In this document: positions 16,226 through 63,572 of the stretch, one piece after another
Position numbering within the stretch: position 1 is the first letter of the stretch
Layout of the letters: each line of letters opens with the position of its first letter
Assembly: GCA_040954595.2 (NCBI GenBank)
Contig: CM082581.2
Coordinates: 310,001-374,000 of the forward strand
Source: Balanoglossus misakiensis
Taxonomy: Eukaryota; Animalia; Hemichordata
Reading direction: 5' to 3'
DNA: 64,000 nt
Notes under the pieces: model-generated
What the model saw: only the letters and a program-made list of their open reading frames with translations
Told to the model about the DNA's origin: nothing
The model's database searches: none
Position numbers and translations under genes: made by a program

Positions 16226-16265
16226 CTGCATAAGTAAACACAGTAGTATTAAATCGTTATTATGG

Positions 16266-26814: not shown

Positions 26815-26935
26815 GTGGATTACTGCAGTCATTGCATTGACACGCAGGGCCACAACCATTGTGGGTCTTATAAACATTTACAACATCTGCTATTACAAGT
26901 TGGCATCTTTTTGCAGCCACACCCTTTTGTTAGCA
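26815..26935 (-). pseudogene. Academ C-terminal Cys-rich (CXC-like) zinc finger, frameshifted
   Basis: Minus strand reads LLTKGCGCKKMPTCNSRCCKC and, after a shift, GCGPACQCNDCSNP. Confidence 0.7.
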
Positions 26936-29464: not shown

Positions 29465-30137
29465 TTTCCTGACCTTATTGCAATGTACAAAGACATGTAT
29501 GCAAACAAATCTTCCTCTATAAATCTAACCCAAAATTTGAAAGTTTTGTCTGTATTTGCCCTTCTGCACAGTACGTGAAATATCCCATAATTCATTCTGA
29601 TTTGTACAATCAGAGATTACTCAGTCAAACCAGGCAAAGTTCACATGTGTAGAGAGAATTGTAGACCACTAATAGAAATTTTGAGATCTTACTTTTAAGG
29701 TGAATCTTATTGTCAATTACCATTTCAAATGATTTAGAAAATTATGTATTATTGAGAGAGAAGATACGAATTTTATAAAATAATCAAGCAATTGCATAGC
29801 CAGCCATACCAAAAAGTTTGGAGTAAAACAGGGACACTTGAAACACCTGTTTAATCAAACAAAATGATATTGATATTTTCTTTTGACAGAACAATGGAAA
29901 TTTACATGTTAACTTTCAACAGAGACTGGCCACCTCAGTCAATCATTGCTTGTTTCCTCATTGCTTGTTTCCTCCAAAGTGTGGCATTTGCAGTACATGA
30001 ATACTTTGATTCTTATTGCTTTTAAATTTTGATTTTGGAATTTCACTCTAATTCCTCAACGTACTTTTCCTAGATAAACATAAATAGATTTATATGTACT
30101 TCATATCATTGTTAGTATCTAAAACAGAAAAAAGTTA

Positions 30138-30889
30138 TTAAATGGGCAACCTTAGATGATACAAATCATTGAGAATTGTGGGTAAAATATCGTACTGTGT
30201 TCTGTCACAAAAAATCTGAAATTCCTCTTGCAAGCGAGTAAGTTGAGCCTTAAGGTCACCATTAATTTTGTCAATATGATCAGCTTTATCTTCAGTACAT
30301 TCCAAAGATTTTGTGACAGCTTCTAGTAAACATTTTTGGACTGTTTCTGTATTTAAGGGACAGTGCTGGGTATTATGGGTGTCACCCCTCTTATTCAAAA
30401 AGGAATTGACAATACATCTAAACATACTTTCCCAAATTTGTGTTAGGAAGCGATGAGTTAGCTTGAAATTTGTACACTGTACTAGGGTTTCCAAAGTTCC
30501 CCCTTTATGATTGAACCCTGCCAGATGTTTTAGGCCAGCATCCCAGAATATTTTCATGATGACTGGTTGGTAATTTTTTTGAGTGTGCCAGTCTCTGATA
30601 AAAGGCTGCAACCAGTCTAAATTTGCACCATACATGTCTTTTAACTTTATCAGGTGATGGAAAGTTTTCCCATCACCAACCACAACCAGGTATTTTATTC
30701 TTACACCAACTCTGAATGTAACATATACAGCTTATTGATAATGTTATGGACAGTTTCAATGGTGTCTGCGTGTTCACTTGATATGCCCAAATAAATGACA
30801 TTTGAGCATTCACTTTCATTACTGTTAGCATTTGTTGCTAATGTTGATTTAAAATCCCCAAAAACTGTTTCTATATCAGCTCTGTGCAT
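30138..30889 (-). pseudogene. Academ transposase core fragment
   Basis: LGISSEHADTIETV.., VGDGKTFHHLIKLK..DWH..KIFWDAGL. Duplicated at 33079-33830. Confidence 0.7.
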
Positions 30890-31151
30890 TGCATTTTTCT
30901 GTAGAGCAAAAATGAATTGTCAGAAAACAGTTCTGACCAAGCAATGGCTTCTTCTTGTTTAATGTCAAAATCTGACAGTGAAATTGATGACCGTGGTTGA
31001 TGTTGTCTCAGTAGAGGTGGTTTAAATACTACATCATTATGAACAGTATCATTGGATTTTTTTCTCCGTAAATGTACGGGCTTTTCTCACAGGTGCACTC
31101 AAACCTGTACCAGTATTTTTTTAGATAGATCTGTCAACCATGATTTTAGTA

Positions 31152-32045
31152 TTATTTCCACAAATTGCCAAAAATTTCATTCATTTCATAGTCTACTGTA
31201 TTTTGTGAACAAAAGCCACTGTTTAATTCCTGCCACCGTTCAAATGAATTCTGTGCATTTTCACTCACCAGACTATCTTTACTTTTAATTAACTGCCTGT
31301 TAAGAAGCAAATCATAATGGCCTGGTTGACCTGGCCTGTCTGGTGTGTACAAGAGACAGACAGGCTCAGTCTTGGAGAACACATCACCATCACCTCTTGC
31401 AAATATATCATTCTGCTTGGTGTATATATGTAATGGACATTTTGCAACATACACTACAGATATCATTTCTGGCATACCAGCATATTCATCTGCCTTTTCC
31501 ATACATTGTGTTCTGTGCAAAATGTCCATATAACGAGTGCCGTCTAACAGGACATCAAGTTGTGCATCATCCATTCCTTCAAAGTATATATGATTGGCAC
31601 GCATTATGTCTACTGTATCTGCTCTTAACTTGTCTGCGAATATTTTCTCTCGGTCAGCTAAAATTGGGTCAGAAGGGAGTCCACTAGGTAAATGATCGCA
31701 ATTTTGCAATGCAATATCATTTCTCACAGAGATGCTCCTGAAAAAGCACCTTCCATCACCATATATGTTGATTAGCTTAAAATCTTTGACAGTTGAATGT
31801 TTGTCATGACTGCCAAAAACAATATCATCAACACTGTTCAAAATTGACTTTGGTTTTGGTTGGACCATTTGATAAGAAGTACCGTGGAAACCTCTGTCCT
31901 TTGGATCAGCTCTAACAGCTGCATATTTAGCTGATTTATCAATATTGTCAATGGAAGTTATACAAAATGCATTATTTGCAATATTTTCCTCTGTGAAATC
32001 AGCTGATGTTCTTTTGTTGATAACTCCCAACATGTATCTATGCAA
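31152..32045 (-). pseudogene. Academ transposase fragment with embedded OTU-like cysteine protease domain
   Basis: SIDNID..FHGT motif followed by IYGDGRCFFRSIS (Asp/Cys box), AGMPEM, LHIY and GHYDLL (His box) in a single frame. Confidence 0.78.
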
Positions 32046-34092
32046 TGTATCTCCAGAACAAATAATACCAAATCAATTTAGAATTTTCACTAGAGTAGAT
32101 GACCTACTATAACCTTCAACAATGTCAGCCAGGTAAGTATGCAATGGGTAAGTACAATGATCAGAACAAGTGAACAATATCATACACACAAAACAAACGC
32201 CTGAGGAATCGTGCTCTACTCTCCATAGAGTGCTGGTCATAAAATCCATAGTAGTGTTTATTCCATTCAAAGTTGGGGCTTTTTAATTTACTGCATTCAC
32301 TGTTGTTCAACGAATTGCTAGGACGTTGTGTTGACATGTACAGGGATCGGTGATATGCATGGAACAGTGGGTTTATTTTTTTCAAAGCCGATATTCGAAG
32401 TTCCAATTTCCTGACCTTATTGCAATGTACAAAGACATGTATGCAAACAAATCTTCCTCTATAAATCTAACCCAAAATTTGAAAGTTTTGTCTGTATTTG
32501 CCCTTCTGCACAGTACGTGAAATATCCCATAATTCATTCTGATTTGTACAATCAGAGATTACTCAGTCAAACCAGGCAAAGTTCACATGTGTAGAGAGAA
32601 TTGTAGACCACTAATAGAAATTTTGAGATCTTACTTTTAAGGTGAATCTTATTGTCAATTACCATTTCAAATGATTTAGAAAATTATGTATTATTGAGAG
32701 AGAAGATACGAATTTTATAAAATAATCAAGCAATTGCATAGCCAGCCATACCAAAAAGTTTGGAGTAAAACAGGGACACTTGAAACACCTGTTTAATCAA
32801 ACAAAATGATATTGATATTTTCTTTTGACAGAACAGTGGAAATTTACATGTTAACTTTCAACAGAGACTGGCCACCTCAGTCAATCATTGCTTGTTTCCT
32901 CATTGCTTGTTTCCTCCAAAGTGTGGCATTTGCAGTACATGAATACTTTGATTCTTATTGCTTTTAAATTTTGATTTTGGAATTTCACTCTAATTCCTCA
33001 ACGTACTTTTCCTAGATAAACATAAATAGATTTATATGTACTTCATATCATTGTTAGTATCTAAAACAGAAAAAGTTATTAAATGGGCAACCTTCGATGA
33101 TACAAATCATGGAGAATTGTGGGTAAAATATCGTACTGTGTTCTGTCACAAAAAATCTGAAATTCCTCTTGCAAGCGAGTAAGTTGAGCCTTAAGGTCAC
33201 CATTAATTTTGTCAATATGATCAGCTTTATCTTCAGTACATTCCAAAGATTTTGTGACAGCTTCTAGTAAACATTTTTGGACTGTTTCTGTATTTAAGGG
33301 ACAGTGCTGGGTATTATGGGTGTCACCCCTCTTATTCAAAAAGGAATTGACAATACATCTAAACATACTTTCCCAAATTTGTGTTAGGAAGCGATGAGTT
33401 AGCTTGAAATTTGTACACTGTACTAGGGTTTCCAAAGTTCCCCCTTTATGATTGAACCCTGCCAGATGTTTTAGGCCAGCATCCCAGAATATTTTCATGA
33501 TGACTGGTTGGTAATTTTTTTGAGTGTGCCAGTCTCTGATAAAAGGCTGCAACCAGTCTAAATTTGCACCATACATGTCTTTTAACTTTATCAGGTGATG
33601 GAAAGTTTTCCCATCACCAACCACAACCAGGTATTTTATTCTTACACCAACTCTGAATGTAACATATACAGCTTATTGATAATGTTATGGACAGTTTCAA
33701 TGGTGTCTGCGTGTTCACTTGATATGCCCAAATAAATGACATTTGAGCATTCACTGTCATTACTGTTAGCATTTGTTGCTAATGTTGATTTAAAATCCCC
33801 AAAAACTGTTTCTATATCAGCTCTGTGCATTGCATTTTTCTGTAGAGCAAAAATGAATTGTCAGAAAACAGTTCTGACCAAGCAATGGCTTCTTCTTGTT
33901 TAATGTCAAAATCTGACAGCGAAATTGATGACCGTGGTTGATGTTGTCTCAGTAGAGGTGGTTTAAATACTACATCATTATGAACAGTATCATTGGATTT
34001 TTTTCTCCGTAAATGTACGGGCTTTTCTCACAGGTGCACTCAAACCTGTACCAGTATTTTTTTAGATAGATCTGTCAACCATGATTTTAGTA

Positions 34093-35250
34093 TTATTTCC
34101 ACAAATTGCCAAAAATCTCATTCATTTCATAGTCTACTGTATTTTGTGAACAAAAGCCACTGTTTAATTCCTGCCACCGTTCAAATGAATTCCGTGCATT
34201 TTCACTCACCAGACTATCTTTACTTTTAATTAACTGCCTGTTAAGAAGCAAATCATAATGGCCTGGTTGACCTGGCCTGTCTGGTGTGTACAAGAGACAG
34301 ACAGGCTCAGTCTTGGAGAACACATCACCATCACCTCTTGCAAATATATCATTCTGCTTGGTGTATATATGTAATGGACATTTTGCAACATACACTACAG
34401 ATATCATTTCTGGCATACCAGCATATTCATCTGCCTTTTCCATACATTGTGTTCTGTGCAAAATGTCCATATAACGAGTGCCGTCTAACAGGACATCAAG
34501 TTGTGCATCATCCATTCCTTCAAAGTATATATGATTGGCACGAAGTCTCTCTCTCGCTGCCCTTTTTCCAGTAATTATGTTTGATGCAAGACACCGTTTA
34601 TGTTATTCTACATGTGGATATATAGCGAATCAATGTTCAACCACACACAACTTCCATCCCGTTTGTAGACACGAGACAGAAAAACTCACCTAAATGAATA
34701 ATTGGTGTTTACCGTTTATTCATTTTGGCGAGATTTTCACTCATATCATACAAACCACATGTAGAATAACATCAACGGTGTCTTGCATCATACATAATTG
34801 ATGGAAAAAGGGCAGCGAGAGAGAGACTTTGTCCCTTTAACTTGTCTGCGAATATTTTCTCTCGGTCAGCTAAAATTGGGTCAGAAGGGAGTCCACTAGG
34901 TAAATGATCGCAATTTTGCAATGCAATATCATTTCTCACAGAGATGCTCCTGAAAAAGCACCTTCCATCACCATATATGTTGAATAGCTTAAAATCTTTG
35001 ACAGTTGAATGTTTGTCATGACAGCCAAAAACAATACCATCAACACTGTTCAAAATTGACTTTGGTTTTGGTTGGACCATTTGATAAGAAGTACCGTGGA
35101 AACCTCTGTCCTTTGGATCAGCTCTAACAGCTGCATATTTAGCTGATTTATCAATATTGTCAATGGAAATTATACAAAATGCATTATTTGCAATATTTTC
35201 CTCTGTGAAATCAGCTGATGTTCATTTGTTGATAACTCCCAACATGTATC
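34093..35250 (-). pseudogene. Duplicate of the OTU-containing fragment, disrupted by a MITE
   Basis: ORFs 34093-34515 and 34772-35080 match 31152-32045. Confidence 0.78.
34542..34836. mobile_element. Kolobok-like MITE, left end deleted
   Basis: Same TIR as 19791-20313, ending gtccct-TTAA. Absent from the first tandem unit (gctcTTAActtg at ~31621-31632). Confidence 0.85.
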
Positions 35251-39257: not shown

Positions 39258-41055
39258 TTATATTATATCATGCTACCGTCCACAATTCTGATTGGATGAG
39301 AGCTCAATCCAGCGATGCTAAAATTAAGCAATAAAACACCCCCAGCCATGGTATACCACGAGATTTTGACCAGTTCACAACATATACGCACGAGTGATAG
39401 CGAGTGCGTATATGGAGTTGAACTGATCAAAATCTCGTGGTATACCATGGCTGGGGGTGTTTTATTGCTATTATATTATGCCGTTATATTGAAACTTTGC
39501 ATAAAACATTTTAAAAAGGCATTTTCTTTGACTATGATATATGACTGTGGTATATGGCTAATATATCACGGTCACGTGTCGTGTCTCGACCAATCAAATA
39601 GCGTGATTTACACCATCAATATACTGGTATAATATAATACTCAATAATGCACTGCTGAACTAGCATATGGCAGCAAAAATGTGCGGTTAAACCACAGTCG
39701 CGCGTGTTTAAATCAAATAAATAAAACAAAAATACTGTTGAATGAACAGATGTTTCATTTTGGAACTGCTCTGTGAAAATATTTGTCACTTTGTCACGCG
39801 CGATGCCCGTCTTGTCACTTTTTGTCGTCTGCTTCATGTTTAATGCTCGATCCCGGCCGCTCGTGTTTACATTCATCGTCGCCATGTTGGTTCACGATCG
39901 TAATTTCAGTTTCGGTAAGAAAATGACACTGATATGCCACAAAAACAATTGTTGATATAATATAATGGCAATAACCCCCGCCTCAGTCGGGTATACACTT
40001 GATTTGGGTACAATTTCCTCCATATAGCACTCGCCTGACGGCTCGTGCTATATGTCTCGAATTGTACCAAAATATCGCGTATACCCGCCTTCAGTGGGGG
40101 TTATTGATTAAATATCAATCACATGATCTGGCCATGTGACACAAAGCATTGTCATTTCCAGGTAATGGGAAAACAATATTGTGGTATCCCGTATAATATT
40201 TTTCCATATGTGTTTATACTTTAGAACCACCAGACAGGTAACATGTATCAGTCATGGTGCCTCAACAGCATCTTGGCATTCGTCTGCACAGTCGTCATTT
40301 GCACCACATTGCTGAAATTCCCCGTTAGCTGGAAATTTGAATGCCAATGGAACTGCGTCTGATGTCATTGATATCAAAGAAAATCTTTATCTACTGGTCA
40401 TCCAATGTCCTCAGTTAAAACATCAAGCTGCCATCTTCTGATGTCATGTTAGGTAACAAATTATACAAATGCAGTTCTATTAAAATACTGAAAAGTGATA
40501 AAATGTCACTTGCCAGGCAAAAGGGATAGATGGGTATTATAACTCAGTTCATAACATAACATACCAATGACTGGTTTTGTACATGTACTTGTGGCTGTGT
40601 CAGAGTTCGAACAACATTGGTGCCAGTGGTGACAGGTGGATTCTTGCTGCAGCTCACATTAGGTACTGTCGGTTGTGTTGACTGCACTCCTGTTTGCATC
40701 GATGACTGCATAAGTAAACAGAGTAGTATTAAATCGTTATTATAGTATACCAGTATATTGATGGTGTAAATCACGCTATTTTATTGGTCGAGACACGACA
40801 CGTGACTGTGATATATTAGTCATATACCACAGTTATTTATCATAGTCAAAGAAAATGCCTTTTTAAAATGTTTTATGCAAAGTTTCAATATACTGGCATG
40901 ATTTAATAGCAATAAAACACCCCCGGCCATGGTATACCACTCGATTTTGACCAGTTCAACTCCATATACGCACTCGCTATCACTCGTGCGTATATGTCAT
41001 GAACTGGTCAAAATCTCGTGATATACCATGGCTGGGAGTGTTTTATTGCTTAAAT
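39258..41055. mobile_element. Duplicate cluster of hairpin-ended elements (equivalent to 14909-16575)
   Basis: Palindromes at ~39327-39469, ~39968-40106 and ~40907-41051. Confidence 0.65.
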
Positions 41056-44624: not shown

Positions 44625-47600
44625 ATTAAAGCTGCAAGCAGCGTTGGCGGGGCACAAGCGGTTCCCATGGTGACCAGCAAATGCCACGACTGTATCTGCT
44701 GGGGATACCAAGATATGGGAAAGTAGGTCAAAGGTCACCTGAGGTCACCCCAAATTTTGGCAAAAAATTGGACCCCATACTAGTCTAGGTCCAACAAAAA
44801 CCAGACCCCTAACTCAATTGGTTCGCCTAGAATTAGGTATGCGCATAATTAATGAGGTCTTGTGTAAAACTCCATATGTGCTCCATCGGCCCCCCAAAAC
44901 CAGGACTCTAACTGCTATGGATGCTGAGATATGGGAAAGTAGATCAAAGGTCATCCAAGGTCACCTAAAATTTGGGCATAAACTTTTGACCCAAGAGTGG
45001 GCCATGTCCAACCAATACCAGACCTCTAGCCCTATTGGGTAGCATGGAATTAGATATGCAGAAAAATGATGCTTCAGAAATAGGTCAAAGGTCATTGTCA
45101 AAATTACCAAAATATTTGTGTCATGTCCTGGCAGCATTGGTACCCATGTCCACAAAATTCATGACTGTGGTGCTTTGACAAGAGGAGGTATGGGGAATAT
45201 GCATATATAATTAGTTGTTTTAAAACTGGGTCAAAGGTCATGTGAAAATTGCCCTGAAAAATTGTGACAACTTCCGGTCATATGATGACTCATATCCAAA
45301 AAAAGAATTTCCATTCTGTCAACATTTTGGCTACAAAACGGAATTATCACTTTTCAATGGTTTTCCGAAAATCCAACATGGCCGCCATAGTGATCGACCA
45401 ATCACAGTGCGCTTCGCAAACTTGATAGACATAGGTTAGGTGACCACATATCCCAAATCCCGAGACTCGGTAACCGCTGGTTCTGGAGAAGAAGATTTTG
45501 AAAGTTTTAAGTAGTTTTTCAGAAAAACAATTGTAGCAAAAAAACTTTATGTATGACGTCATGATTTCAATAGGGTAAAATGATGGACAGAAAGTAGGCT
45601 ACCTGCACACCAAATTTGAACTCGATCGGCCCAGTGGTTTTTGAGAAGGACTTGTTTAACGATTTTCAGGAAATCCAATATTGCCGCCAGGTCACGTGAT
45701 TAATTAAATATTCACGAGCCACTGCACGTCTACTCATTGGCCCCTATCACCCTACCAAGTTTCAGCCCCCTAGGTGCTGCCGTTTTCCAGATCTACCTGG
45801 CCGATTTTTGGAGAAGAAGAAGAAGAATAAAGAATTAAAGCTGCAAGCAGCATTGTCCGGGCCCAAGCTCAATTATCTGATCTGATAATTAGATATGCAC
45901 ATAATTAATGAGTAGGAACATAATGCTGTGTTTTATCCCATGAAATATCAAGGTTATGTTTGGTGTTGATATAGTGTTAAGTAGGTCAAAGGTCACCCAG
46001 AGGTCACCCACAATTTGGGCAGAAAATTTTGACCCATAGTGGTCCATGTCCAACAAAAACCAGATCTCTAGCCCTTTTGGTTAGCTCGGAATTAGGTATG
46101 CACATAAATAATGAGTTAAGCAGGTGTCACAGGTGAGCCAAAACTTTTGCTTTTCATTATGGCCCCATACCTCCAAACGCCAAGGCTGTATCTGCGGTGG
46201 ATGTCAAGTTATGCAAAAGTAGGTCAAAGGTCACCCGAGGTCACCCAACATTTGGGCAAAATATTTTGACCCCATACTGGTCCATGTATAACAAAAACAA
46301 AACCTCTAGCCCTTTTGGTTAGCCCAGAATTAGGTATGCACATAAATAATGAGTCAAGCAGGTGTCACAGGTCACCCAAAACGTTGTCTTTTCCGTATGG
46401 CCCCATACCTCCAAACGCCAAGGCTGTATCTGCTGTGGATGTCGAGATATGCAAAAGTAGGTCAAAGGTCACCCGAGGTCACCCAACATTTGGGCAAAAT
46501 ATTTTGACCCCATACTGGTCCATGTATAACAAAAACAAAACCTCTAGGTCTATTGGTTCATCATTAATTAGGTATGCGCATATTTAATGAGGTCACCAGA
46601 GGTCAAAGGGGTCATGAAAAGTAGCAAAATTTTTTGATCACATACAAATCCACATACATCAAAAACCAAACTTATAGCCCTATTGGTTAGCCTGGAATTA
46701 GATATGCAGAAAAATGATGCGTCAAAAGTAGGTCAAAGGTCATTGCCAAAATTACCAAAATATTTATAGCTTATTCTTGTCATATGATGATTCATATCCA
46801 TAAAAAGAATTTCTGTGCTATCAATTTTTAGGCTAGAAAAGGAATTTTTACTTTTTAATCGTTTTTCACAAAATCCAATATGGCCGCCATAATCTTCGAC
46901 CAATCACATTCCCCTTCGCAAACTTGATAGACATCTGTTTAATGACCACGCACACCAAATCTTGTGACTGGGTTATCGCCCGTTCTTGAGAAGAAGATTT
47001 TTGAAGTTTCACTATGGTTTTTCGAAAATCCAATATGGCCGCCATAATCTTCAACCAATCACAATGATCTTCGCAAACTTGATAGACATCAGTTAGGTGA
47101 CCACATACCCCAAACCGCGTGACTCAGCTATCACCGGTTCGGGAGAAGAAGATTTTTGAAATTTAAGCCAGATTTCAGAAAAAAAATTGTAGCAAAAAAA
47201 CTGCAACATTTACAGCAAAATATCCAATTACAAAAATGATGGGTAGAAGGTTGACTACCTGCACACCAAATTTGAAGTCGATCTGACTTGTAGTTTCTGA
47301 GATCTGAGATTTGCATTTTTTCAGAAAATCCAATATGGCCGCCAGGTCACGTGACTAATTAAAAATTCAAGGGTTCAATGCACGACTACTCATTGACCTT
47401 GACCACTGTAGCAAGTTTCAGAAGTGTACCTGCAGCGGTGTCTGAGATCTAGAGCGACAAAGAATTGACAGAAGAATAAAGAAAGAAAGAAAGAAAGAAA
47501 GATTAAAGCTGCAAGCAGCATTGTCCGGGCCCAAGCTCTATTATCTGATCTGATTATTAGATATGCACATAATTGATGAGTAGAAACATAATGCTGGGTT

Positions 47601-50600
47601 TTATCCCATGAAATATCAAGATTATATCTATGTTTAGTGCTGATATAGTGTTAAGTAGGTCAAAGGTCACCCACAATTTTGGCAGAAAATTTTGACCCAT
47701 AGTGGTCCATGTCCAACAAAAACCAGACCTCTAGCCCTTTTGGTTATCCCAGAATTAGGTATGCACATAAATAATGTGTTAAGCAGGTGTCACAGGTGAC
47801 CCAAAACTTTGGCTTTTCATTATGGCCCCATACCTCCAAACACCAAGGCTGTATCTGCTGTGGATGTCGAGATATGCAAAAGTAGGTCAAAGGTCACCCG
47901 AGGTCACCCAACATTTGGGCAAAATATTTTGACCCCATACTGGTCCATGTATAACAAAAACAAAACCTCTAGGTCTATTGGTTCATCATTAATTAGGTAT
48001 GCGCATATTTAATGAGGTCAGCAGAGGTCAAAGCGGTCATGAAAAGTAGCAAAATTTTTTGATCACATACAAATCCACATACATCAAAAACCAAACTTAT
48101 AGCCCTATTGGTTAGCCTGGAATTAGATATGCAGAAAAATGATTCGTCAAAAGTAGGTCAAAGGTCATTGCCAAAATTACCAAAATATTTATAGCTTATT
48201 CTTGTCATATGATGATTCATATCCATCAAAAGAATTTCTGTGCTATCAATTTTTAGGCTAGAAAGGGAATTTTTACTTTTTAATCGTTTTTCACAAAATC
48301 CAATATGGCCGCCATAATCTTCGACCAATCACATTCCTCTTCGCAAACTTGATAGACATCTGTTGAATGACCACACACACAAAATCTTGTGACTCGGTTA
48401 TCGCCGGTTCTCGAGAAGAAGATTTTTGAAATTTTACTAGGGTTTTTCGAAAATCCAATATGGCCGCCACAATCTTCGACTAATCACAATGATCTTCGCA
48501 AACTTGATAGACATCAGTTAGGTGACCACATACCCCAAACCCCATGTCTCGGTTATCACCGGTTCTGGAGAAGAAGATTTTTGAAATTTAAGCCAGATTT
48601 CAGAAAAAAAATTGTAGCAAAAAAACTGCAACATTGACAGCATAATTTCCAATTACAAAAATGTTTGACAGAAGGTAGTCTACCTGCACGCCAAATTTGA
48701 AGTTGATCTGACTTGTAGTTTCTGAGACCTGAGATTTGCATTTTTTCATAAAATCCAAGATGGCCGCCAGGTCATGTGACTAATTAAAAATTCATGGGTT
48801 CAATGCACGACTACTCATTGACCTTGACCACTGTAGCAAGTTTGAGAACTGTACCTGCAGTGGTGTCTGAGATCTAGAACGACAAAGAAATGACAGAAGA
48901 ATAAAGAAAGAAAGAAAGAAAGAAAGATTAAAGCTGCAAGCAGCATTGTCCGGGCCCAAGCTCTATTATCTGATCTGATGCTGATATAGTGTTAAGTAGG
49001 TCAAAGGTCACCCGAGGTCACCCAACATTTGGGCAAAATATTTTGACCCCATACTTGTCCATGTATAACAAAAACAAAACCTCTAGGTCTATTGGTTCAT
49101 CTGTAATTAGGTATGTGCATATTTAATGAGGTCAGCAGAGGTCAAAGGGGTCATGAAAAGTAGCAAAATTTTTTGATCACATACGAATCCACATACATCA
49201 AAAACCAAAATGATAGCCTTAAAGGTTAGCCTGGAATTAGATATGCAGAAAAATGATGCGTCAAAAGTAGGTCAAAGGTCATTGCCAAAATTACCAAAAT
49301 ATTTATAGCTTATTCTTGGCATATGATGATTCATATCCATACAAAGAATTTCTGTGCTATCAATTTTTAGGCTAGAAAGGGAATTTTTACTTTTTAATCG
49401 TTTTTCACAAAATCCAATATGGCCGCCATAATCTTCGACCAATCACATTCCCCTTCGCAAACTTAATAGACATCTGTTTAATGACCACACACACCAAATC
49501 TTGTGACTCGGTTATCGCCCGTTCTGGAGAAGAAGATTTTTGAAGTTTTACTATGGTTTTTCGAAAATCCAATATGGCCGCCATAATCTTCGACCAATCA
49601 CAATGATCTTCGCAAACTTGATAGACATCTGTTAGGTGACCACATACCCCAAACGGCGTGACTCGGTTATCGCTGGTTCTGGAGAAGAAGATTTTTGAAA
49701 TTTAAGCCAGATTTCAGAAAAAAAATTGTAGCAAAAAAACTGCAACATTGTCAGCATAATTTCCAATTACAAAAATGATGGGCAGAAGGTAGTCTACCAG
49801 CATGCCAAATTTGAAGTTGATCTGACTTGTAGTTTCTGAGATCTGAGATTTGCATTTTTTTAGAAAATCCAAGATGGCCGCCAGGTCACGTGACTAATTA
49901 AAAATTCACAGGTTCAATGCACGACTACTCATTGACCTTGACCACTGTAGCAAGTTTCAGAAGTGTACCTGCAGCGGTGTCTGAGATCTAGAGCGACAAA
50001 GAATTGACACAAGAATAAAGAAAGAAAGAAAGAAAGAAGAAAGAAGGAAAGACAGAAAAACCCCAACGAAACCAATAGGGCCCAAGCGCTGGTATGCGCT
50101 TGGGCCCTAAAAAACCCCAACGAAACCAATAGGGCCCAAGCGCTGGTATGCGCTTGGGCCCTAAAAAACCCCAACGAAACCAATAGGGCCCAAGCGCTGG
50201 TATGCGCTTGGGCCCTAATTAAAGCTGCGAGCAGCATTGTCGGGCCCAAGCGCTGCTCTCGAATTATATATGCACAGTATGAATGTGAAGAAACAGAATT
50301 TTCTATCGGGTGTATTATCTCATGACATAACAAGGACGTATGTATTTTTGCTGCTGAAATAGGGTGAAGTAGGTCAAAGGACACCTGAGGTCACCCAACA
50401 TTTGGGCAATTTTTTTTGACCCATACTGGTCCATGTCAAACAAAAACTAAAACTCTAGCTCTATTGGTTCGCCTGTAATTAGGTATGTGCATATTTAATG
50501 AGGTCAGCAGGTGTCACAGGTGACCCAAAAATGTGGCTGTACATTTTTGCCCCATCCTGCCAAATGCCAAGGCTGTATCTGCTCTGGATGCTGAGATATG

Positions 50601-53600
50601 CGAAAGTGGGTCTAAGGTCACCTGAGGTCACCAAACATTTGGGCAAAATTTTTTGACCCATACTGGTCCATGTCAAACAAAAACTAAAACTCTAGCTCTA
50701 TTGGTTCGCCTGTAATTAGGTATGTGCATATTTAATGAGGTCAGCAGGTGTCACAGGTGACCCAAAAATGTGGCTGTACATTTTGGCCCCATCCTGCCAA
50801 ATGCCAAGGCTGTATCTGCTCTGGATGCTGAGATATGCGAAAGTAGGTCAAAGGTGACCAGAGGTCACCCAACATTTGGGCAAAAAATTTTGTTCCCATA
50901 GTGGTCCATGTCCAACAAAAACCAAATCTCTAGCTCTATTGGTTCGCCTGTAATTAGCTATGTGCATAATTAATGAGGTCAGCAGAGGTCAAAGGGGTCA
51001 TGAAAAGTAGCAAAATATTTTGATCACACACTAATCCACATGCATCAAAAACCAAACGTCTAGCCCTATAGGTTAGCCTGGAAATAGATATGCAGAAATA
51101 ATAACGTGTGAAAAGTAGGTCAAAGGTCATGTGAAAAATCGCCAAAAAATTGTAACATAATTTAGTCACATGACGATTGATATCCATAAAAAGAGTTTGT
51201 ATGCTATCAATTTTTACACTAGGAAAAGGAATTTCAATTTTTCACTGCTTTTTACATAATCCAATATGGCCGCCATAATCTTCGACCAATCACAATGTTC
51301 TTTGCAAACTTGATAGACATCAGTGAAGTGACCAAACTCCCCGAATCTTGCGACTCAGTTATCGCCCGTTCTGGAGAAGAAGATTTTTTGAGTTTTACTA
51401 TGGTTTTTCGAAAATCCAATATGGCCGCCATAATCTTCGACCAATCACAATGATCTTCGCAAACTTGATAGACATCAGTTAGGTGACCACATACACCAAA
51501 CCCCGTGTCTCGGTTATCACCGGTTCTGGAGAAGAAGATTTTTGAAATTTTGACCAGATTTAAGAAAAAAAATTGTGGCAAAAAAACTGCAACATTGACA
51601 GCATAATTTCCAATTACAAAAATGATGGGCAGAAGGTAGTCTACCTGCACGCCAAATTTGAAGTCGATCTGACTTGTAGTTTCTGAGATCTGAGATTTGC
51701 ATTTTTTCAGAAAATCCAAGATGGCCGCCAGGTCATGTGACTAATTAAAAATTCAAGGGTTCAATGCACGACTACTCATTGACCTTGACCACTGTAGCAA
51801 GTTTCAGAAGTGTACCTGCAGTGGTCTCTGAGATCTAGAGCGACAAAGAATTGACACAAGAATAAAGAAAGAAAGAAGAAAGAAAGACAGAATTAAAGCT
51901 GCAAGCAGCATTGTCCGGGCCCAAGCTCTATTATCTGATCTGCACATAATTAATGAGTAGAAACATAATGCTGTGTTTTATCCCATGACATATCAAGGTT
52001 ATATCTATGTTTGGTGCTGATATTGTGTTAAGTAGGTCAAAGGTCATCTGAGGTGACCCAAAATTTGGGCAGAAAATTTTGACCCATAGTGGTCCATGTC
52101 CAACAACAACCAGACCTCTAGCCCTTTTGGTTAGCCCGGAATTAGGTATGCACATAAATAATAAGTTAAGCAGGTGTCATAGGTGACCCAAAACTTTGGC
52201 TTTTCATTATGGCCCCATACCTCCAAACGCCAAGGCTGTATCTGCTGTGGATGTCGAGATATGCAAAAGTAGGTCAAAGGTCATCTGAGGTCATCCAAAA
52301 TTTGGGCGAAAAATTTTGACCCATAGTGGTCCATGTCCAACAAAAACCAGACCTCTAGCCCTTTTGGTAAGCCCAGAATTAGGTATGCACATAAATAATG
52401 AGTAAAGCAGGTGTCACAGGTGACCCAAAACTTTGGCTTTTCATTATGGCCCCATACCTTCAAACGCCAAGGCTGTATCTGCTGTGGATGTCGAGATATG
52501 CAAAAGTAGGTCAAAGGTCACCCGAGGTCACCCAACATTTGGGCAGAAAATTTTGACCCATAGTGGTCCATGTCCAACAAAAACCAGAACTCTAGCCATT
52601 TTGGTTAGCCCGGAATTAGGTATTCACATAAATAATGAGTAAAGCAGGTGTCACAGGTGACCCAAAACTTTGGCTTTTCATTATGGCCCCATACCTCCAA
52701 ACGCCAAGGCTGTATCTGGTGTGGATGTCGAGATATGCAAAAGTAGGTCAAAGGTCACCCGAGGTCACCCAACATTTGGGCAAAATATTTTGACCCCATA
52801 CTGGTCCATGTATAACAAAAACAAAACCTCTAGGTCTATTGGTTCATCTGTAATTAGGTATATGCATATTTAATGAGGTCAGCAGAGGTCAAAGGGGTCA
52901 TGAAAAGTAGCAAAATTTTTTGATCACATACAAATCCACATACATCAAAAACCAAACTTATAGCCCTATTGGTTAGCCTGGAATTAGATATGCAGAAAAA
53001 TGATGCGTCAAAAGTAGGTCAAAGGTCATTGCCAAAATTACCAAAATATTTATAGGTTATTCTTGTCATATGATGATTCATATCCATAAAAAGAATTTCT
53101 GTGCTATCAATTTTTAGGCTAGAAAGGGAATTTTTACTTTTTAATCGTTTTTCAAAAAATCCAATATGGCCGCCATAATCTTCGACCAATCACATTCCTC
53201 TTCGCAAACTTGATAGACATCTGTTGAATGACCACACACACAAAATCTTGTGACTCGGTTATCGCCGGTTCTCGAGAAGAAGATTTTTGAAATTTTAATA
53301 GGGTTTTTTGAAAATCCAATATGGCCGCCATAATCTTCGACCAATCACAATGATCTTCGCAAACTTGATAGACATCAGTTAGGTGACCACATACCCCAAA
53401 CCCCGTGTCTCGGTTATCACCGGTTCTGGAGAAGAAGATTTTTGAAATTTAAGCCAGATTTCAGAAAAAAAATTGTAGCAAAAAAACTGCAACATTGACA
53501 GCATAATTTCCAATTACAAAAATGTTTGACAGAAGGTAGTCTACCTGCACGCCAAATTTGAAGTTGATCTGACTTGTAGTTTCTGAGATCTGAGATTTGC

Positions 53601-56600
53601 ATTTTTTCAGAAGATCCAAGATGGCCGCCAGGTCATGTGACTAATTAAAAATTCATGGGTTCAATGCACGACTACTCATTGACCTTGACCACTGTAGCAA
53701 GTTTGAGAACTGTACCTGCAGTGGTGTCTGAGATCTAGAACGACAAAGAAATGACAGAAGAATAAAGAAAGAAAGAAAGACAGATTAAAGCTGCAAGCAG
53801 CATTGTCCGGGCCCAAGCTCTATTATCTGATCAGATTATTAGATATGCACATAATTAATGAGTAGAAACATAATGCTATGTTTTATCCCATGAAATATCA
53901 AGGTTATATCTATGTTTGGTGTTGATATAGTGTTAAGTAGGTCAAAGGTCACCCAGAGGTCACCCACAATTTGGGCAGACAATTTTGACCAGTAGTGGTC
54001 CATGTCCAACAAAAACCAGACCTCTAGCCCTTTTGGTTAGCCCGGAATTAGGTATGCACATAAATAATGAGTTAAGCAGGTGTCACTGGTGACCCAAAAC
54101 TTTGGCTTTTCAGTATGGCCCCATACCTCCAAATGCCAAGGCTGTACCTGCTTTGGATGCCGAGATATGCAAAAGTACGTCAAAGGTCATCTGAGGTCAT
54201 CCAAAATTTGGGCAGAAAATTTTGACCCATAGTGGTCCATGTCCAACAAAAACCAGACCTCTAGCCCTTTTGGTTAGCCTAGAATTAGGTATGCACATAA
54301 TTAATGAGTTAAGCAGGTGTCACAGGTGACCCAAAACGTTGGCTTTTCATTATGGCCCCATACCTCCAAACGCCAAGGCTGTATCTGCTGTGGATGTCGA
54401 GATATGCAAAAGTAGGTCAAAGGTCACCCGAGGTCACCCAACATTTGGGCAAAATATTTTGACCCAATACTGGTCCATGTCCAACAAAAACCAAACCTCT
54501 AGGTCCATTGGTTCATCTGTAATTAGGTATGTGCATATTTAATGAGGTCAGGAGAGGTCAAAGGGGTCATGAAAAGTAGCAAAATTTTTGGATCACATAC
54601 AAATCCACATACATCAAAAACCAAACTTATAGCCCTATTGGTTAGCCTAGAATTAGATATGCAGAAAAATCATGCGTCAAAAGTAGGTCAAAGGTCATTG
54701 CCAAAATTACCAAAATATTTATAGCTTATTCTTGGCATATGATGATTCATATCCGTAAAAAGAATTTCTGTGCTATCAATTTTTAGGCTAGAAAGGGAAT
54801 TTTTACTTTTTAATAGTTTTTCACAAAATCCAATATGGCCGCCATAATCTTCGACCAATCACATTCCCCTTCGCAAACTTGATAGACATATGTTTAATGA
54901 CCACACACACCAAATCTTGTGACTCAGTTATCGCCGGTTCTTGAGAAGAAGATTTTTGAAATTTTACTAGGTTTTTTTTTAAATCCAATATGGCCGCCAT
55001 AATCTTCGACCAATCACAATGATCTTCGCAAACTTGAAAGACCTCAGCTTGGTGAACACATACCCCAAACCGCGTGACTCGGTTATCGCCGGTTCTGGAG
55101 AAGAAGATTTTTGAAATTTTGACCAGATTTCAGAAAAACAACTGTAGCAAAAAAATCGCAACATTGACAGCAATATATCCAATTACAAAAATGATGGGCA
55201 GAAGGTACTCTACCAGCACACCAAATCTGAAGGAAATCTGACTTGTAGTTTCTGAGATCTGAGATTTGCATTTTTTCAGAAAATCCAATATGGCCACCAT
55301 GTCACGTGACTAATTAAAAATTCAAGAGTTCAATGCACGACTACCCATTGACCTTGACCACTGTAGCAAGTTTGAGAAGTGTACCTGCAGCGGTGTCTGA
55401 GATCTAGAGCGACAAAGAAATGACAGAAGAATAAAGAAAGAAAGAAAGAAAGAAGGAAAGACAGAAAAACCCCAACGAAACCAATAGGGCCCAAGCGCTG
55501 GCTTGCGCTTGGGCCCTAAAAAACCCCAACGAAACCAATAGGGCCCGAGCGCTGGTATGCGCTTGGGCCCTAATTAAAGCTGCAAGCAGCATTGTCGGGC
55601 CCAAGCGCTGATCCGGTATTATATATGCACAGTATGAATGAGAAGAAACAGAATGCTCTATCAGGTGTTTTATCTCATGACATAACAAGGACGTATGTAT
55701 TTTTCCTGCTGAAATAGAGTAAAGTAGGTCAAAGGTCACCTGAGGTCACCCAACATTTGGGCAAAATTTATTGACCCATACTGTTCCATGTCCAACAAAA
55801 ACTAAAACTCTAGTTCTATTGGTTCGCCTGTAATTAGGTATGTGCATATTTAATGAGGTCAGCAGGTGTCACAGGTGACTCAAAAATGTGGCTTTACATT
55901 TTGGTCCCATCCTGCCAAATGCCAAGGCTGTATCTGCCCTGGATGCTGAGATATGCAAGTAGGTCAAAGGTCACCAGAGGTCACCCAATATTTGGGCAAC
56001 AAATTTTGACCCCATATTGGTTCATGTCCAACAAAAACCAAACCTCTAGCTCTATTGGTTCGCCTGTAATTAGCTATGCACATAATTAATGAGGTCAGCA
56101 AAGGTCAAAGGGGTCATGAAAGTAGCAAAATATTTTGATCACACACAAATCCACATGCATCAAAAACCAAATGTCTAGCCCTATAGGTTAGCCTGGAAAT
56201 AGATATGCAGAAATAATAATGTGTGAAAAGTAGGTCAAAGGTCATGTGAAAAATCGACCAAAATTTGTAACATATTTTAGTCACATAAAGATTGATATCC
56301 ATAAAAAGAATTTGTATGCTATCAATTTTTAGACTAGAAAAAGGAATTTCAATTTTTCACTGCTTTTTACAAAATCCAATATGGCCGCCATAATCTTCGA
56401 CCAATCACAATGTTCTTTGCAAACTTGATAGACATCAGTGTAGTGACCATACTCCCCGAATCTTGCGACTCAGTCATCGCCCGTTCTGGAGAAGAAGATT
56501 TTTGGAGTTTAACTATGGTTTTTCGAAAATCCAATATGGCCGCCATAATCTTCGACCAATCACAATGATCTTCGCAAACTTGATAGACATCAGTGAGGTG

Positions 56601-59600
56601 ACCACATACCCCAAACCCCGTGTCTCGGTTATCACCGGTTCTGGAGAAGAAGATTTTTGAAATTTAAGCCAGATTTCAGAAAAAAAATTGTAGCAAAAAA
56701 ACTGCAACACTGTAGCAAAATTTCCAATTACAAAAATGATGGGTAGAAGGTAGTCTACCTGCATGCCAAATTTGAAGTCGATCTGACTTGTAGTTTCTGA
56801 GATCTGAGATTTGAATTTTTTCAGAAAATCCAATATGGCCGCCAGGTCACGTGACTAATTAAGTATTCACAAGTCACTGCACATCTACTCATAGACTTTG
56901 ACCACTGTAGCAAGTTTGAGCAGTGTACCTGCAGTAGTTTCAGAGATTTAGTTGGCCGAAGAATTGACACAAGAATAAAGAAAGAAAGCCGGAAAGAAAA
57001 ATTCCAACGAAACCAATAGGGCCCAAGCGCTTGCTTGCGCTTGGGCCCTAAAAACCCCAACGAAACCAATAGGGCCCAAGCGCTTGCTTGCGCTTGGGCC
57101 CTAAATATAGCTGCAAGCAGCAATAGCGGGCCCAAGCCAACATAGCACATAGCAACATAGCAATAAGCATATCTGCTCTGGATGCCAAGATATGGTAAAG
57201 TAGGTCAAAGGTCACCTGAGTTCATGCAAAATTTGGGCAAGAAATTTTGACCCTATACTGGTCCATGATCAACAACAACCAAACCTATAACCCTATTGGT
57301 TAGCCTGGAATTAGGTATGCACATAATTAATGAGGTAGGCAGGTGTCACAGGTGACCCCCATTTTGGCTTTTCAACTTTAGTCCCAACCCTCCAAACGCC
57401 AAGTCTGTACCTGCTCTGTATGCCGAGATATAGGAAAGTAGGTCAAAGGTCACCTGAGGTCACCCACAATTTGGGCAAGAAATTTTGACCCTATACTGGT
57501 CCATGTCCCACAAGAACGAAACCTCTAGCCCTCTTAGTTAGCCCATAATTAGGTATGCACATAATTAATGAGTTAAGCAGGTGTTACAGGTGAGCCTAAA
57601 ATTTTGCCTTTTATTTTGGTGCCATTGTGCTCACTGACCAATAGACAGTCACTGTACAGGACTATTGCACAGACCAGAATTCCACAATAAGACATGGACA
57701 TACCTTAACCATAGAGGTATAGTATAAGTAAAGGTATAAATTTAATAAAGAAATTAATATAAAAAAATCGGTCGATTTTTCATATTATTTTATTTCGCTA
57801 AAAATTATTGACAAATGCTAGGCTAGCTGCACACCAAAGTTGGAGATGATCGGCCTAACAGATTTTGAGATATGTATGCATATTTATCCAAAGTAATATG
57901 TGGTCATAGCTTTACTATGTAAAGTATACGCCGATGGCTTGGGCGAAAAATATGAAAAATAATACTTAAAAATCTTCTTCTCAAATATGACATGGCCTAT
58001 GGCCTTGACATTTGGCATGTACAACCCTGGCCATATGGCCCACAAAGTATCTTAACAGAATTTTGATATCTCCATTCATATGCAAATTAGGCCTATTTGA
58101 AAATTTTGCCCATATATGGTCATCAGGTCACGTGACTAATTAAACATTCACAAGGGTACTGCACCAGCTCTCATTGGCCTGCACCACTGTGCCAAGTTTG
58201 AAATTGATAGGTTTAGCCGTTTTCCAGATCTAGCTGGCCGAAAAAACTACACAAGAAAAAAAAGAAGTAGAAGAATATAGCTGCAAGCAGCAATGGCGGG
58301 CCCAAGCCAACATAGCACATAGCAACATAGCAATAAGCATATCTGCTCTGGATGCCAAGATACGGTAAAGTAGGTCAAAGGTCACCTGAGGTCATGCAAA
58401 ATTTATTTGAGAAATTTTGACCCTATACTGGTCAATGTTCAACAAAAACCAAAACTATAGCCCTATTGGTTAGCCTGGAATTAGGTATGCACATAATTAA
58501 TGAGATATGCAGGTGTCACAGGTGACCCCTATTTTGGCTTTTCAACTTTAGTCCCAACCCTCCAAACGCCAAGTCTGTACCTGCTCTGGATGCCGAGATA
58601 TAGGAAAGTAGGTCAAAGGTCACCTGAGGTCACCCCAAATTTGGACAAGAAATTTTGACCCTATACTGGTCCATGTCCCACAAGAACGAAACCTCTAGCC
58701 CTCTTAGTTAGCCCAGAATTAGGTATGCACATAATTAATGAGTTAAGCAGGTGTTACAGGTGAGCCTAAAATTCTGCCTTTTATTTTGGTGCCATTGTGC
58801 TCACTGACCAATAGACACTCACTGTACAGGACTATTGCACTGACCAGAATTCCACAATAAGACATGGACATAGAGGTATAAGTAAAGGTATAAATTTATT
58901 TAAAAAATTAATATAAAAAAATCCGTCGATTTTTCATATTATTTTTTTTCGCTTAAAATTATTGACAAATGCTAGTCTAGCTGCACACCAAAGTTGGAGA
59001 TGATTGGCCTGCCAGATTTTGAGATATGTATGCATATTTATCCAAAATAATATGTGGTCATAGCTTTACTATGGAAAGTATAGGCCCATGGCTTGGTCAA
59101 AAAATATGAAAAATAATACTTAAAAATCTTCTTCTCAAAATTGGCATGGCCAATGGCCTTGACATTTGGCAAGTAGGACACTGACCACATGGTCCGCAAA
59201 AGTTGCTAAAAGAATTTTGATATCTCCATTCATATGCAAATAAGGCCGATTTGGAAATTTTGCCCATATATGGTCATCAGGTCACATGACCAATTACACA
59301 TTCACAAGGGTACTGCACGAGCTCTCATAGGCCTGCACCATTGTGCCAAATGTGAGATTTGTAGGTTCAGCCGTTTTCACGATCTAGCTGGACAAAAAAA
59401 CGACACAAGAAGAAGAAGAAGAAGAAGAAGAAGTAGAAGAAAAACCCCAGTAATACCAATAGGGCCCAAGCCTGCTGGGCTTGGGCCCTAAATATAGCTG
59501 CAAGCAGCAATAGCGGGCCCAAGCCAACATAGCACATAGCACATAGCAACATAGCAATAAGCATATCTGCCCTGGATGCCAAGATATGGTAAAGTAGGTC

Positions 59601-61031
59601 AAAGGTCACCTGAGGTCATGCAAAATTTGGGCAAGATATTTTGACCCTATACTGGTCTGTGTTCAACAAAAACAAACCTATAGCCCTATTGGTTAGCCTG
59701 GAATTAGGTATGCACATAATTAATTAGGTAGGCAGGTGTCACAGGTGATCCCCAATTTTGGCTTTTCAATTTTAGTCCCAACCCTCCAAACGTAAAGTCT
59801 GTACCTGCTCTCGATGCCAAGATCTGGTAAAGTAGGTCAAAGGTCACCTGAGGTCATGCAAAAATTGTGCAAGAAATCTTTACCCTATACTGGTCCATGT
59901 TCAACAAAAACCAAACCTATAGCCCTATTGGTTACCCTGGAATTAGGTATGCACATAATTAATGAGATATGCAGGTGTCACAGGTGACCCCCAATTTGGC
60001 TTTTCAATTTTAGTCCCAACCCTCCAAACGCCAAGTCTGTACCTGCTCTGGATGCCGCGATAAAGGAAAGTAGGTCAAAGGTCACCTGAGGTCACCCAAA
60101 ATTTGGGCAAGAAATTTTGACCCTATACTGGTCCATGTCCCACAAGAACGAAACCTCTAGCCCTCTTAGTTAGCCCAGAATTAGGTATGCACATAATAAA
60201 TGAGTTAAGCAGGTGTTACAGGTGAGCCTAAAATTGTGCCTTTTATTTTGGTGCCATTGTGCTCACACACCAACAGACAGTCACTGTACAGGACTATTGC
60301 ACAGACCAGAATTCCACAATAAGACATGGACATAGCTTAACCATAGAGGTATAAGTAAAGGTATAAATTTAATAAAAAAATTAATATAAAAAAATCGGTC
60401 GATTTTCATAGTATTTTTTTTTCGCTTAAAATTATTGACAAATGCTAGGCTAGCTGCACACCAAAGTTGGAGATGATCGGCCCTAACAGATTTTGAGATA
60501 TGTATGCATATTTATCCAAAATAATATGTTGTCATAGCTTTACTATGTAAAGTATAGGCACATGGCTTGGGCGAAAAATATGAAAAATAATACTTAAAAA
60601 TCTTCTTCTCAATATTGACATGGCCTATGGCCTTGACATTTGGCATGTAGAACCCTTGCCATATGGCCCACAAAGTATCTTAACAGAATTTTGATATCTC
60701 CATTCATATGCAAATTAGGCCGATTTGAAAATTTTGCCCATATATGGTCATCAGGTCACGTGACTAATAAAACATTCACAAGGGTACTGCACAAGCTCTC
60801 ATTGGCCTGCACCATTGTGCCAAGTTTGAAATTGGTAGGTTAAGCCGTTTTCCAGATCTAGCTGGCCGAAAAAACGACAGAAGAAGAAAAAGAAAAACTC
60901 CAGGTACCTGCTGGGCTTGGGCCCTAAAAAACCAGGATAATACCAATAGGGCCCAAGCGCTGCATGCGCTTGGGCCCTAAAAATTCCAACAATACCAATA
61001 GGGGCACAAGCCCGATAGGCTTTTGCCCCTA
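44625..61031 (-). mobile_element. Stack of 11 nested Helentron-type non-autonomous elements (HINE/DINE-like)
   Basis: Each unit on the minus strand has a 5' hairpin TAGGGCCCAAGC..GCTTGGGCCCTA, a (TTC)/(TTTC) microsatellite, central tandem repeats, a subterminal GCTTGGGCCC, and a 3' stem-loop GCTGCTTGCAGC. No TSD, inserted in TT. Copy 1 has the empty site aaatataattaattg (~20260-20274). Confidence 0.82.
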
Positions 61032-63244: not shown

Positions 63245-63572
63245 CATGTTAGAATTAATTTTATAAAGCCTGGAATTAATTTTACCAGTATGTAGAATTA
63301 TTTTTTATGTGCTTTAATTATTTTTTGTAGTCATGCAGAAATCATTTTATGTGTTCTAAATTTTAGCTTATCTTTGTTAGAAATAATTTTGCCAACAATA
63401 TCTCAAATTATTTTTACGTGAACAATCGAATTAATTACAGGTGTAGTGTCGAATTAATTTTACGTGTTGTGTCGAATTAATTTCACGTGTAGTGTCGAAT
63501 TAATATCACCTGTTTGGTCAAATTAATTTCACGTGTTGTGTCGAATTATTTTACGTTGTGTCGAATTAATAT
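63245..63572. repeat. Degenerate ~22-bp tandem repeat
   Basis: Units like gtgtcgaattaattttacgtgtt, best conserved at 63425-63572 and decaying leftward. Confidence 0.75.

Follow-up and report, generated by a model that had tools for sequence, protein, structure and literature searches.

Non-autonomous Helitron2 (HLE2) transposons are described, in the available parts of the sources that are cited here and below by their PMC numbers, as having asymmetric terminal repeats, a 5′ hairpin built on the 5′ repeat, a 3′ repeat 20-30 nt from the end and T-flanked insertion without target duplication, the site being TTTT^T/C in one family (PMC3627910; PMC11417382). HINE and DINE-1 elements, among them the oyster element Cg_HINE, have a subterminal repeat with a nearby inverted copy, a microsatellite behind the head (as the short 5′ segment of an element is called here), central tandem repeats, a 3′ palindrome and poly-T targets (PMC4067079; PMC7492417). 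These traits come together in a 16.4-kb stack of eleven elements at positions 44625-61031 of a 64-kb stretch of DNA from the hemichordate Balanoglossus misakiensis (contig CM082581.2; the whole stretch is referred to as the window), in which copies lie inside one another and every inner copy occupies the same internal site of an earlier one. The central tandem repeats measure 237-238 and 155 nt in this case. Neither a fixed internal self-target nor balanced stacks are described in the available parts of PMC3627910 and PMC11417382, while the word "nested" is not used of insertions in those of PMC4067079 and is absent from PMC7492417.

Elements that insert into their own kind have been reported before. 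The FoHeli elements of Fusarium are of the HLE2 type and have repeated short 5′ ends, explained by self-insertion near the 5′ end (PMC5148889; PMC13342296), with repeated ends of 31, 65, 73 or 85 nt and up to five 5′ ends per copy (PMC5148889). In FoHeli, however, several heads accompany one 3′ end and the repeated length varies among strains (PMC5148889), whereas in the stack heads and bodies are balanced, one split offset is found in all hosts and four subfamilies are present. Maize Helitrons also insert near or in each other and have multiple termini, but these are canonical HLE1 elements and the available text reports no single fixed site for them (PMC3288121). Tandem arrays produced by rolling-circle amplification are different again, as they consist of head-to-tail copies of one sequence rather than nested copies of different subfamilies (PMC12628747). 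The element class and 5′-end self-insertion are already known, and this caps the surprise. What is new here is the spacing from the inner arm of the head hairpin to the insertion site (21-22 nt, vs 24-25 nt at the true ends) and the choice of hosts of the same subfamily (6 of 7 cases, counted post hoc). A literature search, outside which lay most subscription papers and the Fusarium supplements, found no balanced fixed-offset HINE stack in animals and no arm-to-site spacing of this kind.

Layout of the stack

The entire window was searched for the two end motifs, on either strand. Eleven 3′-end motifs were found (44630, 45839, 47507, 48932, 50223, 51897, 53789, 55578, 57109, 58279 and 59496), all on one strand and all within the stack, together with eleven hairpin ends (50109, 50163, 50217, 55518, 55572, 57050, 57103, 59490, 60926, 60979 and 61031) in the same orientation. 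Written as opening and closing brackets, the marks read (((()))((())())(()())), an order that reaches zero only at the last hairpin and lies entirely inside 44625-61031. The same eleven 3′ ends, eleven hairpins and bracket order had been put forward in an earlier reading of this DNA (the original prediction). Balanced closure only at the end is expected in ~2.4% of random orders of 11 + 11 marks (16796/705432), and the bracket order alone is modest evidence; stronger are the sibling elements, which adjoin with a 0-nt gap in 4/4 cases, and the rebuilt A-runs described in the next section.

The nesting tree is 1[2[3[4]], 5[6[7], 8], 9[10, 11]], with six hosts, five uninterrupted copies and a depth of at most four. 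The rebuilt monomers lie on the minus strand and measure 1183-1946 nt, and in the remaining 47.6 kb of the window no monomer match to the stack family was found at E < 1e-3. By their 3′ ends the bodies fall into groups A (elements 2, 3, 4, 6 and 7), B (5 and 8), C (9, 10 and 11) and D (1), in agreement with the earlier estimate that at least four subfamilies had inserted at one internal T-run. The parts of the stack and its empty counterpart are as follows.

44625-45833, minus strand: element 1 (subfamily D), body and 3′ end; the outermost copy, interrupted by elements 2, 5 and 9; its flank continues in the empty paralog
60980-61031, minus strand: element 1, 5′ head, 52 nt; the inner arm of its hairpin is identical to its own variant of the 3′ subterminal repeat
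45834-47501, minus strand: element 2 (A), body and 3′ end; interrupted by element 3; its sequence combines two A types in a mosaic
50164-50217, minus strand: element 2, 5′ head, 54 nt (from hairpin scan and excision)
47502-48926, minus strand: element 3 (A), body and 3′ end; interrupted by element 4; shares 97% identity with element 6
50110-50163, minus strand: element 3, 5′ head, 54 nt (from hairpin scan and excision)
48927-50109, minus strand: element 4 (A), uninterrupted, 1183 nt; some internal sequence close to its own 3′ end is deleted
50218-51891, minus strand: element 5 (B, with an A-like part adjoining the microsatellite), body and 3′ end; interrupted by elements 6 and 8
57051-57103, minus strand: element 5, 5′ head, 53 nt (from hairpin scan and excision)
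51892-53783, minus strand: element 6 (A), body and 3′ end; interrupted by element 7
55519-55572, minus strand: element 6, 5′ head, 54 nt (from hairpin scan and excision)
53784-55518, minus strand: element 7 (A), uninterrupted, 1735 nt
55573-57050, minus strand: element 8 (B), uninterrupted, 1478 nt
57104-58273, minus strand: element 9 (C), body and 3′ end; interrupted by elements 10 and 11
60927-60979, minus strand: element 9, 5′ head, 53 nt (from hairpin scan and excision)
58274-59490, minus strand: element 10 (C), uninterrupted, 1217 nt
59491-60926, minus strand: element 11 (C), uninterrupted, 1436 nt; head without the inner hairpin arm
20186-20762, strand not applicable: empty site on the paralogous (or allelic) copy; 20266/20267 corresponds to the insertion point of the 16.4-kb stack

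Excision of the inner copies and the empty site

Removal of the inner copies restores a G followed by five A's (plus strand) in six of the six hosts, the same sequence as in the five uninterrupted copies. The excision check proposed in the original prediction thus rebuilds a contiguous run every time, though hosts 2 and 3 are four bases short. The A-run is split 1+4 in hosts 1 and 5, where the four-A half lies 15.1 kb (host 1) and 5.2 kb (host 5) away, and 0+5 in the other four hosts (2, 3, 6 and 9); by our own arithmetic, A counts that are complementary in this way would be met by chance 1 time in 15, given the counts.

The outer insertion is confirmed by a paralogous empty site. The duplicated flank is unbroken at 20266/20267 (97.6% identity over 4189 nt on the left and 98.0% over 496 nt on the right), and the outer element is placed between these two positions with zero bases added or lost. 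Two earlier statements are borne out here, namely that the stack is absent from the first duplication copy and that insertion is of the TT type without target duplication. A 7-nt look-alike duplication at the outer site arises from a target that matches the element's own end letters.

The two flanks belong to a ~25-kb duplication (window positions 104-20810 vs 36482-61842), 93-100% identical by block and with reciprocal insertions, the first copy containing two long terminal repeat (LTR) retrotransposons and the second the stack. Either a true tandem duplication or the tandem assembly of two haplotypes may account for it.

A simple rolling-circle concatemer, which the original prediction had already argued against, is ruled out: only 4 of the 10 inner 3′ ends follow a head, four subfamilies are present, and siblings differ in subfamily or are ~91% identical. 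Homologous integration of a circle was rejected on logic, as it yields head-to-tail dimers and not nests.

Element class

Judged by sequence features, the stack consists of eleven non-autonomous Helitron2/HLE2 (HINE, DINE-1-like) elements, because the unit matches the Helitron2 definition (PMC3627910), the HLE2 description (PMC11417382) and the HINE/DINE-1 anatomy (PMC4067079, PMC7492417, PMC3630058), as far as these are set out in the available parts of the sources. Helitron2 is recognized by a 5′ repeat, 8-15 nt long, that lies 0-2 nt from the 5′ terminus (PMC3627910). In 10 of the 11 elements a 10-nt repeat core begins 2 nt inside the 5′ end of the monomer (minus strand), and in element 1 the repeat pattern begins 3 nt from the end, inside a longer G run; the stack elements conform to this position of the repeat. 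The 5′ repeat and a nearby inverted copy of it give a hairpin with a 13-14 bp stem (z -4.6 to -7.3 relative to shuffles in 4/4 heads folded), and both arms are found in 10 of the 11 heads, the inner arm being deleted in element 11. On the element strand the hairpin is followed by a 20-nt spacer ending in five T's and then by a pyrimidine microsatellite, so that a purine microsatellite adjoins each head on the plus strand.

The bodies carry tandem repeats of 155 nt and 237-238 nt. A 3′ copy of the subterminal repeat lies 24-25 nt from the element end in all eleven elements. A short 3′ palindrome, which gives a 4-bp stem, is likewise found in 11/11, but the 3/3 ends that were folded do no better than shuffles (z 1.00, 0.97 and -0.13). 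Only three stop-to-stop frames of at least 120 aa occur in the stack, all of them crossing junctions or repeats, and the elements, which have no coding capacity, agree with HINE/DINE-1-like elements in their microsatellite and central tandem repeats.

Read on the element strand, the ends are TAGGG and TAAT or TATT, which rules out a canonical Helitron (HLE1; 5′ TC, 3′ CTRR and insertion at A^T). Insertion took place at T^T at the outer site, as judged against the empty paralog, and at TTTT^T in two and TTTTT^C in four of the six hosts, which is the T-T (or TTTT and T/C) insertion without target duplication of Helitron2/HLE2. In strict usage the name "Helentron", which the original prediction applied, requires an autonomous partner with RepHel and an apurinic/apyrimidinic (AP) endonuclease and with the same ends; 11 of the 23 window frames listed were scanned, and no partner bearing RepHel or an endonuclease was found among them. 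A scan of viral contigs for the hairpin pattern returned 0 matches and one of metagenome contigs two, both of the latter being one GC-rich palindrome without other element features. The window itself is AT-rich and eukaryote-like in base composition (~35-48% GC per 2 kb) and dense in repeats.

The internal target site

All ten inner copies lie at one site, the five-T run 52-54 nt inside the 5′ end of an earlier copy, and the guest has the orientation of its host in 10/10 cases. Nested insertion at a fixed site is very likely, and the repeated use of one internal T-run, as originally proposed, is seen in every inner copy together with the A-run rebuilt in all six hosts. Each element contains 24-51 TTTT^Y sites (both strands) and 8-15 runs of five or more. 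Among the TTTT^Y sites of the eleven monomers (384 in total, both strands), insertion is found at the head site and at no other, and the 642 TTTT^Y sites in the rest of the window hold no family copy. The chance that the first insertion in six hosts would always fall at the two head positions is ~3e-8, or 8e-7 if only runs of at least five are counted; the window was chosen for looking odd, so these probabilities overstate the surprise, but not by enough orders of magnitude to matter.

The geometry of the site resembles that of the 3′ end. Read on the element strand, the 3′ subterminal repeat (GCTTGGGCCC) recurs in direct orientation as the inner arm of the head hairpin. From this arm to the insertion point there are 22 nt in five hosts and 21 nt in one, and from the 3′ repeat to the true end there are 24-25 nt in 11/11 elements. 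The spacer between hairpin and site has a constant length across the four subfamilies and a variable sequence. The outer genomic target, which is not a TTTT^Y site, repeats the element's own last letters.

It could be that the nested insertions are real and that the site is simply the best plain target on offer, namely five T's that border a pyrimidine microsatellite and are perhaps opened by the neighbouring hairpin, with no mimicry or docking. Such a preference has precedents, since Helitron-1N1_CRe inserts between TTTT and T/C (PMC3627910) and HINEs favour poly-T (PMC4067079), and TTTT^Y fits 6/6 host sites. A plain target would nevertheless have to be reconciled with the use of the head site alone among the many TTTT^Y sites and long runs of each element, with a strict orientation and same-subfamily hosts, neither of which it leads one to expect, and with an outer site that is not TTTT^Y and echoes the element's end letters; we regard it as unlikely. 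Selection for a safe harbour, as suggested at first, would not explain one base-precise site inside non-coding elements.

Element 11 (59491-60926) has lost the inner arm and has received no insertion. This is a single case, and such copies are a natural control for hairpin-anchored targeting.

Subfamilies and the pairing of bodies with heads

With body distances taken from alignment-based identities, the distances among bodies and among heads under the bracket pairing are correlated (rho 0.76), and 1 of 20,000 free permutations is as high (p ~1e-4). Among the 31,104 order-valid pairings, in which each head may be assigned to any open body, the bracket pairing ranks in the top 96, with 90 scoring better, and hence the subfamily marks support the pairing between groups and cannot fix it within them. 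The original claim that these marks support the pairing stands only in this coarser form. Element 5 is a mosaic (B/A), and the hairpin loop of element 9 is unlike the loops of elements 10 and 11. Element 2 is likewise a mosaic, of two A types.

Host and guest are of the same subfamily in six of the seven non-root insertions (8/2520 label permutations; 0.002-0.003 in sequential simulations), and C is never mixed with A or B (42/2520 label permutations; ~0.005 simulated, with or without subfamily waves), both comparisons being post hoc. Same-subfamily host choice fits sequence-specific recognition or sub-stacks that moved as units. In the latter case the sub-stacks (2-3-4, 5-6-7-8 and 9-10-11), or the whole 16.4 kb, would have been built elsewhere and moved as composites by read-through of inner 3′ ends, an account that is compatible with the explanation preferred below and alters only where the nesting occurred. 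It would explain why the sub-stacks are sorted by subfamily, and it has a parallel in Fusarium, where elements with duplicated 5′ ends move as units (PMC5148889). The flank copies, moreover, differ by only 1.5-2.0% substitutions, less than any element pair differs, which leaves a short time for eleven events. However, composites running from an outer head to the first 3′ end should produce surplus heads, of which the stack has none, and transfer of the whole unit must pass ten inner 3′ ends. Movement as composites is possible, if somewhat unlikely. Should the stack postdate the split of the flanks, the differences among its elements would mostly reflect diverse donors.

Recurrence elsewhere in the genome

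Three public sequencing runs of one sample (X1, X2 and X3) contain the element; they are possibly the source of the assembly itself and so are not independent of it. In X3 only 0.08 of the words were present, and this run was used solely for one example of a dispersed head. Among the contigs listed, which are part of the total, a head-after-head junction with one A fewer is crossed at 55400-55640 by 11 (X1) and 4 (X2) contigs, amounting to 10% and 11% of the summed depth at the head end, and a junction with one A more is crossed at 56680-57400 by 3 (X1) and 7 (X2) contigs, amounting to 3% and 8%; the microsatellite at 55400-55470 was skipped when the contigs were aligned, and the depth bins do not separate the junction types. 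The mean contig depth in X2 is 5221 for the four-A form and 2664 for the five-A form, vs 39 and 37 for two contigs that contain flank and element end. Taken at face value, this is roughly 70-550 copies per junction form, compared with six head-after-head junctions in the window. An 89-nt X2 contig that bridges a junction under the 31-letter rule, with 8 other letters and no gap, fits none of these six junctions in our comparison, and dispersed copies are present in one X2 contig and one X3 contig. Rough as they are, these figures suggest that head-after-head junctions recur widely in the genome, so that the recurrence beyond the window anticipated in the original prediction finds support, within one sample, in junction-crossing contigs at 3-11% of the summed depth.

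The same data raise the question of whether misassembly of a high-copy repeat produced the order of the stack. Copies of the family are very common in the runs, neither of the two stretches is spanned by a contig, and the 25-kb duplication around the stack could consist of two haplotypes put end to end. No two bodies have the same sequence, however, and mis-joins would not preserve the A counts, the subfamily match and the exact empty site, all of which makes an artefact extremely improbable.

Proposed mechanism

The explanation that we favour is an HLE2 stack in which ten copies were placed one after another by a trans-acting RepHel that treated the five-T site as an element end. As a whole this is on balance probable. 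Anchoring by the resident hairpin is, taken separately, quite probable, and the end-mimic route in particular is tentative, falling just short of an even chance. A trans-acting RepHel holding an incoming 5′ end would dock on the resident inner arm, or the incoming 5′ repeat would pair with that arm. RepHel would then read "repeat, ~22 nt, T-run" in the resident copy as a 3′ end and nick in the T-run, and joining at the nicked T-run would replace circle closure or the use of an ordinary T-rich site. Each insertion would cut the host into a head of 52-54 nt and a headless body and would supply a fresh site, such that the locus would gain targets while growing; head-to-tail siblings may come from the same reaction at the re-formed T-run of the host or at the true 3′ end. 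The end-mimic route is proposed because the inner arm copies the 3′ repeat, the offset of the site mirrors that of the true end and the outer target repeats the end letters. It also draws on Helraiser (HLE1), which moves one strand via a circle with a precise end junction (PMC5876387), and on the proposal that pairing of the 5′ and 3′ repeats marks the end point in Helitron2 (Bao and Jurka, 2013, PMC3627910).

Several observations weigh against this explanation. No transposase for the stack was found among the 11 window frames scanned. The arm-to-site spacer is 3 nt shorter than the true-end spacer and has no 3′-type palindrome, and the inner site also obeys the plain TTTT^T/C rule of one Helitron2 family (PMC3627910). 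Near the outer target the best matches to the repeat have 3 mismatches, and since there is no good repeat copy, anchoring is not required for insertion. The contig evidence comes from one sample, summed depth is not copy number, and overhangs a few letters long can mimic a junction. The age analysis consisted of a tree of the seven A and B bodies, counts of private substitutions for the five A bodies and, for the C bodies, pairwise comparison only. In 1005 columns, hosts 2, 3 and 6 have 13, 8 and 5 private substitutions, while the innermost copies 4 and 7 have 24 and 37. Contrary to the original expectation, neither the tree nor these counts show inner copies that are younger, although a count of this kind dates insertions poorly. 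Lastly, hosts 2 and 3 are without four site-adjacent bases that are present in elements 4, 5, 6 and 7, and junctions 2|3 and 3|4 share an 89-nt stretch of perfect identity, which ends at the deletion of element 4. Both the identity and the four-base loss could go back to a short tract of conversion or to a donor variant in common.

The 89-nt match is also what might be expected if bodies and heads had been multiplied independently of each other, whether through tandem duplication on the spot, unequal crossing-over or conversion, their balance being due to chance. Identity across adjacent junctions had been named in the original prediction as a finding that would speak against nesting, and it is present in part, at these two junctions. 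The adjacent head triplet (50056-50217) is in addition identical over 54 nt, and elements 2 and 5 are mosaics. Neighbouring A bodies, on the other hand, reach no more than 93-95% identity, and the highest value (97%) is that between elements 3 and 6, which do not adjoin. Separate multiplication would account for at most part of the 2-3-4 group and leaves the four subfamilies and the complementary A counts unexplained, and we judge it very unlikely. An origin of element 3 by unequal crossing-over is ruled out, as this element is 97-99% like element 6 throughout and does not show the predicted 4/2 hybrid pattern.

Other features of the window

The first duplication copy contains, at 3733-14885, a Pao/BEL-type LTR retrotransposon (8345-14492, with identical end repeats of 209 nt and the domains Peptidase_A17, DUF1759 and DUF5641) inside another LTR retrotransposon, which has identical end repeats of 154 nt and a 1417-aa frame with reverse transcriptase, RNase H and integrase. 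From the order of its domains we take the enclosing element to be Ty3/Gypsy-like. The identical end repeats suggest that both insertions are recent. A 316-nt palindromic repeat occurs in four copies (14976-15291, 16258-16573, 39324-39639 and 40738-41053), as one inverted pair in each half of the duplication. To the right of the empty site lie a region of 158-nt tandem repeats and two palindromic pieces that resemble miniature inverted-repeat transposable elements (21072-21771, 22790-23375 and 23612-23737).

Broken frames at 26868-35221 (minus strand) have a weak DUF6589 match below the cut-off and include a motif, without a Pfam hit, that we presume to resemble an OTU protease. With its internal duplication of 2.2 kb at 99.4% identity (29393-31601 and 32335-34542), this region probably represents the remains of a DNA transposon. 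At 63406-63570 a 23-nt unit is repeated in an array of ~6 copies.

Implications for HLE2 target choice

For HLE2 elements (Helitron2, Helentron and DINE-1), the literature consulted on target choice offers only a T-rich preference and hypotheses, and the biochemistry that was found concerns the HLE1 element Helraiser. The stack supplies ten insertions at a base-precise site, a spacing rule that mirrors the 3′ end and a preference for kin, each of which is testable. It also indicates that short arrays of heads and headless bodies can arise from insertion alone, where repeat annotation would misread them as a satellite and fragments. That HLE2 elements have a built-in homing site, in which the inner arm serves as a decoy 3′ end that is found by repeat pairing in trans or by subfamily-specific binding of RepHel, is a doubtful proposition at this stage. 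If true, it would represent a self-encoded target guide, of a kind not described for eukaryotic rolling-circle transposons in the literature searched. Each subfamily would then prefer its kin, and target choice would be redirectable by changing a short DNA repeat.

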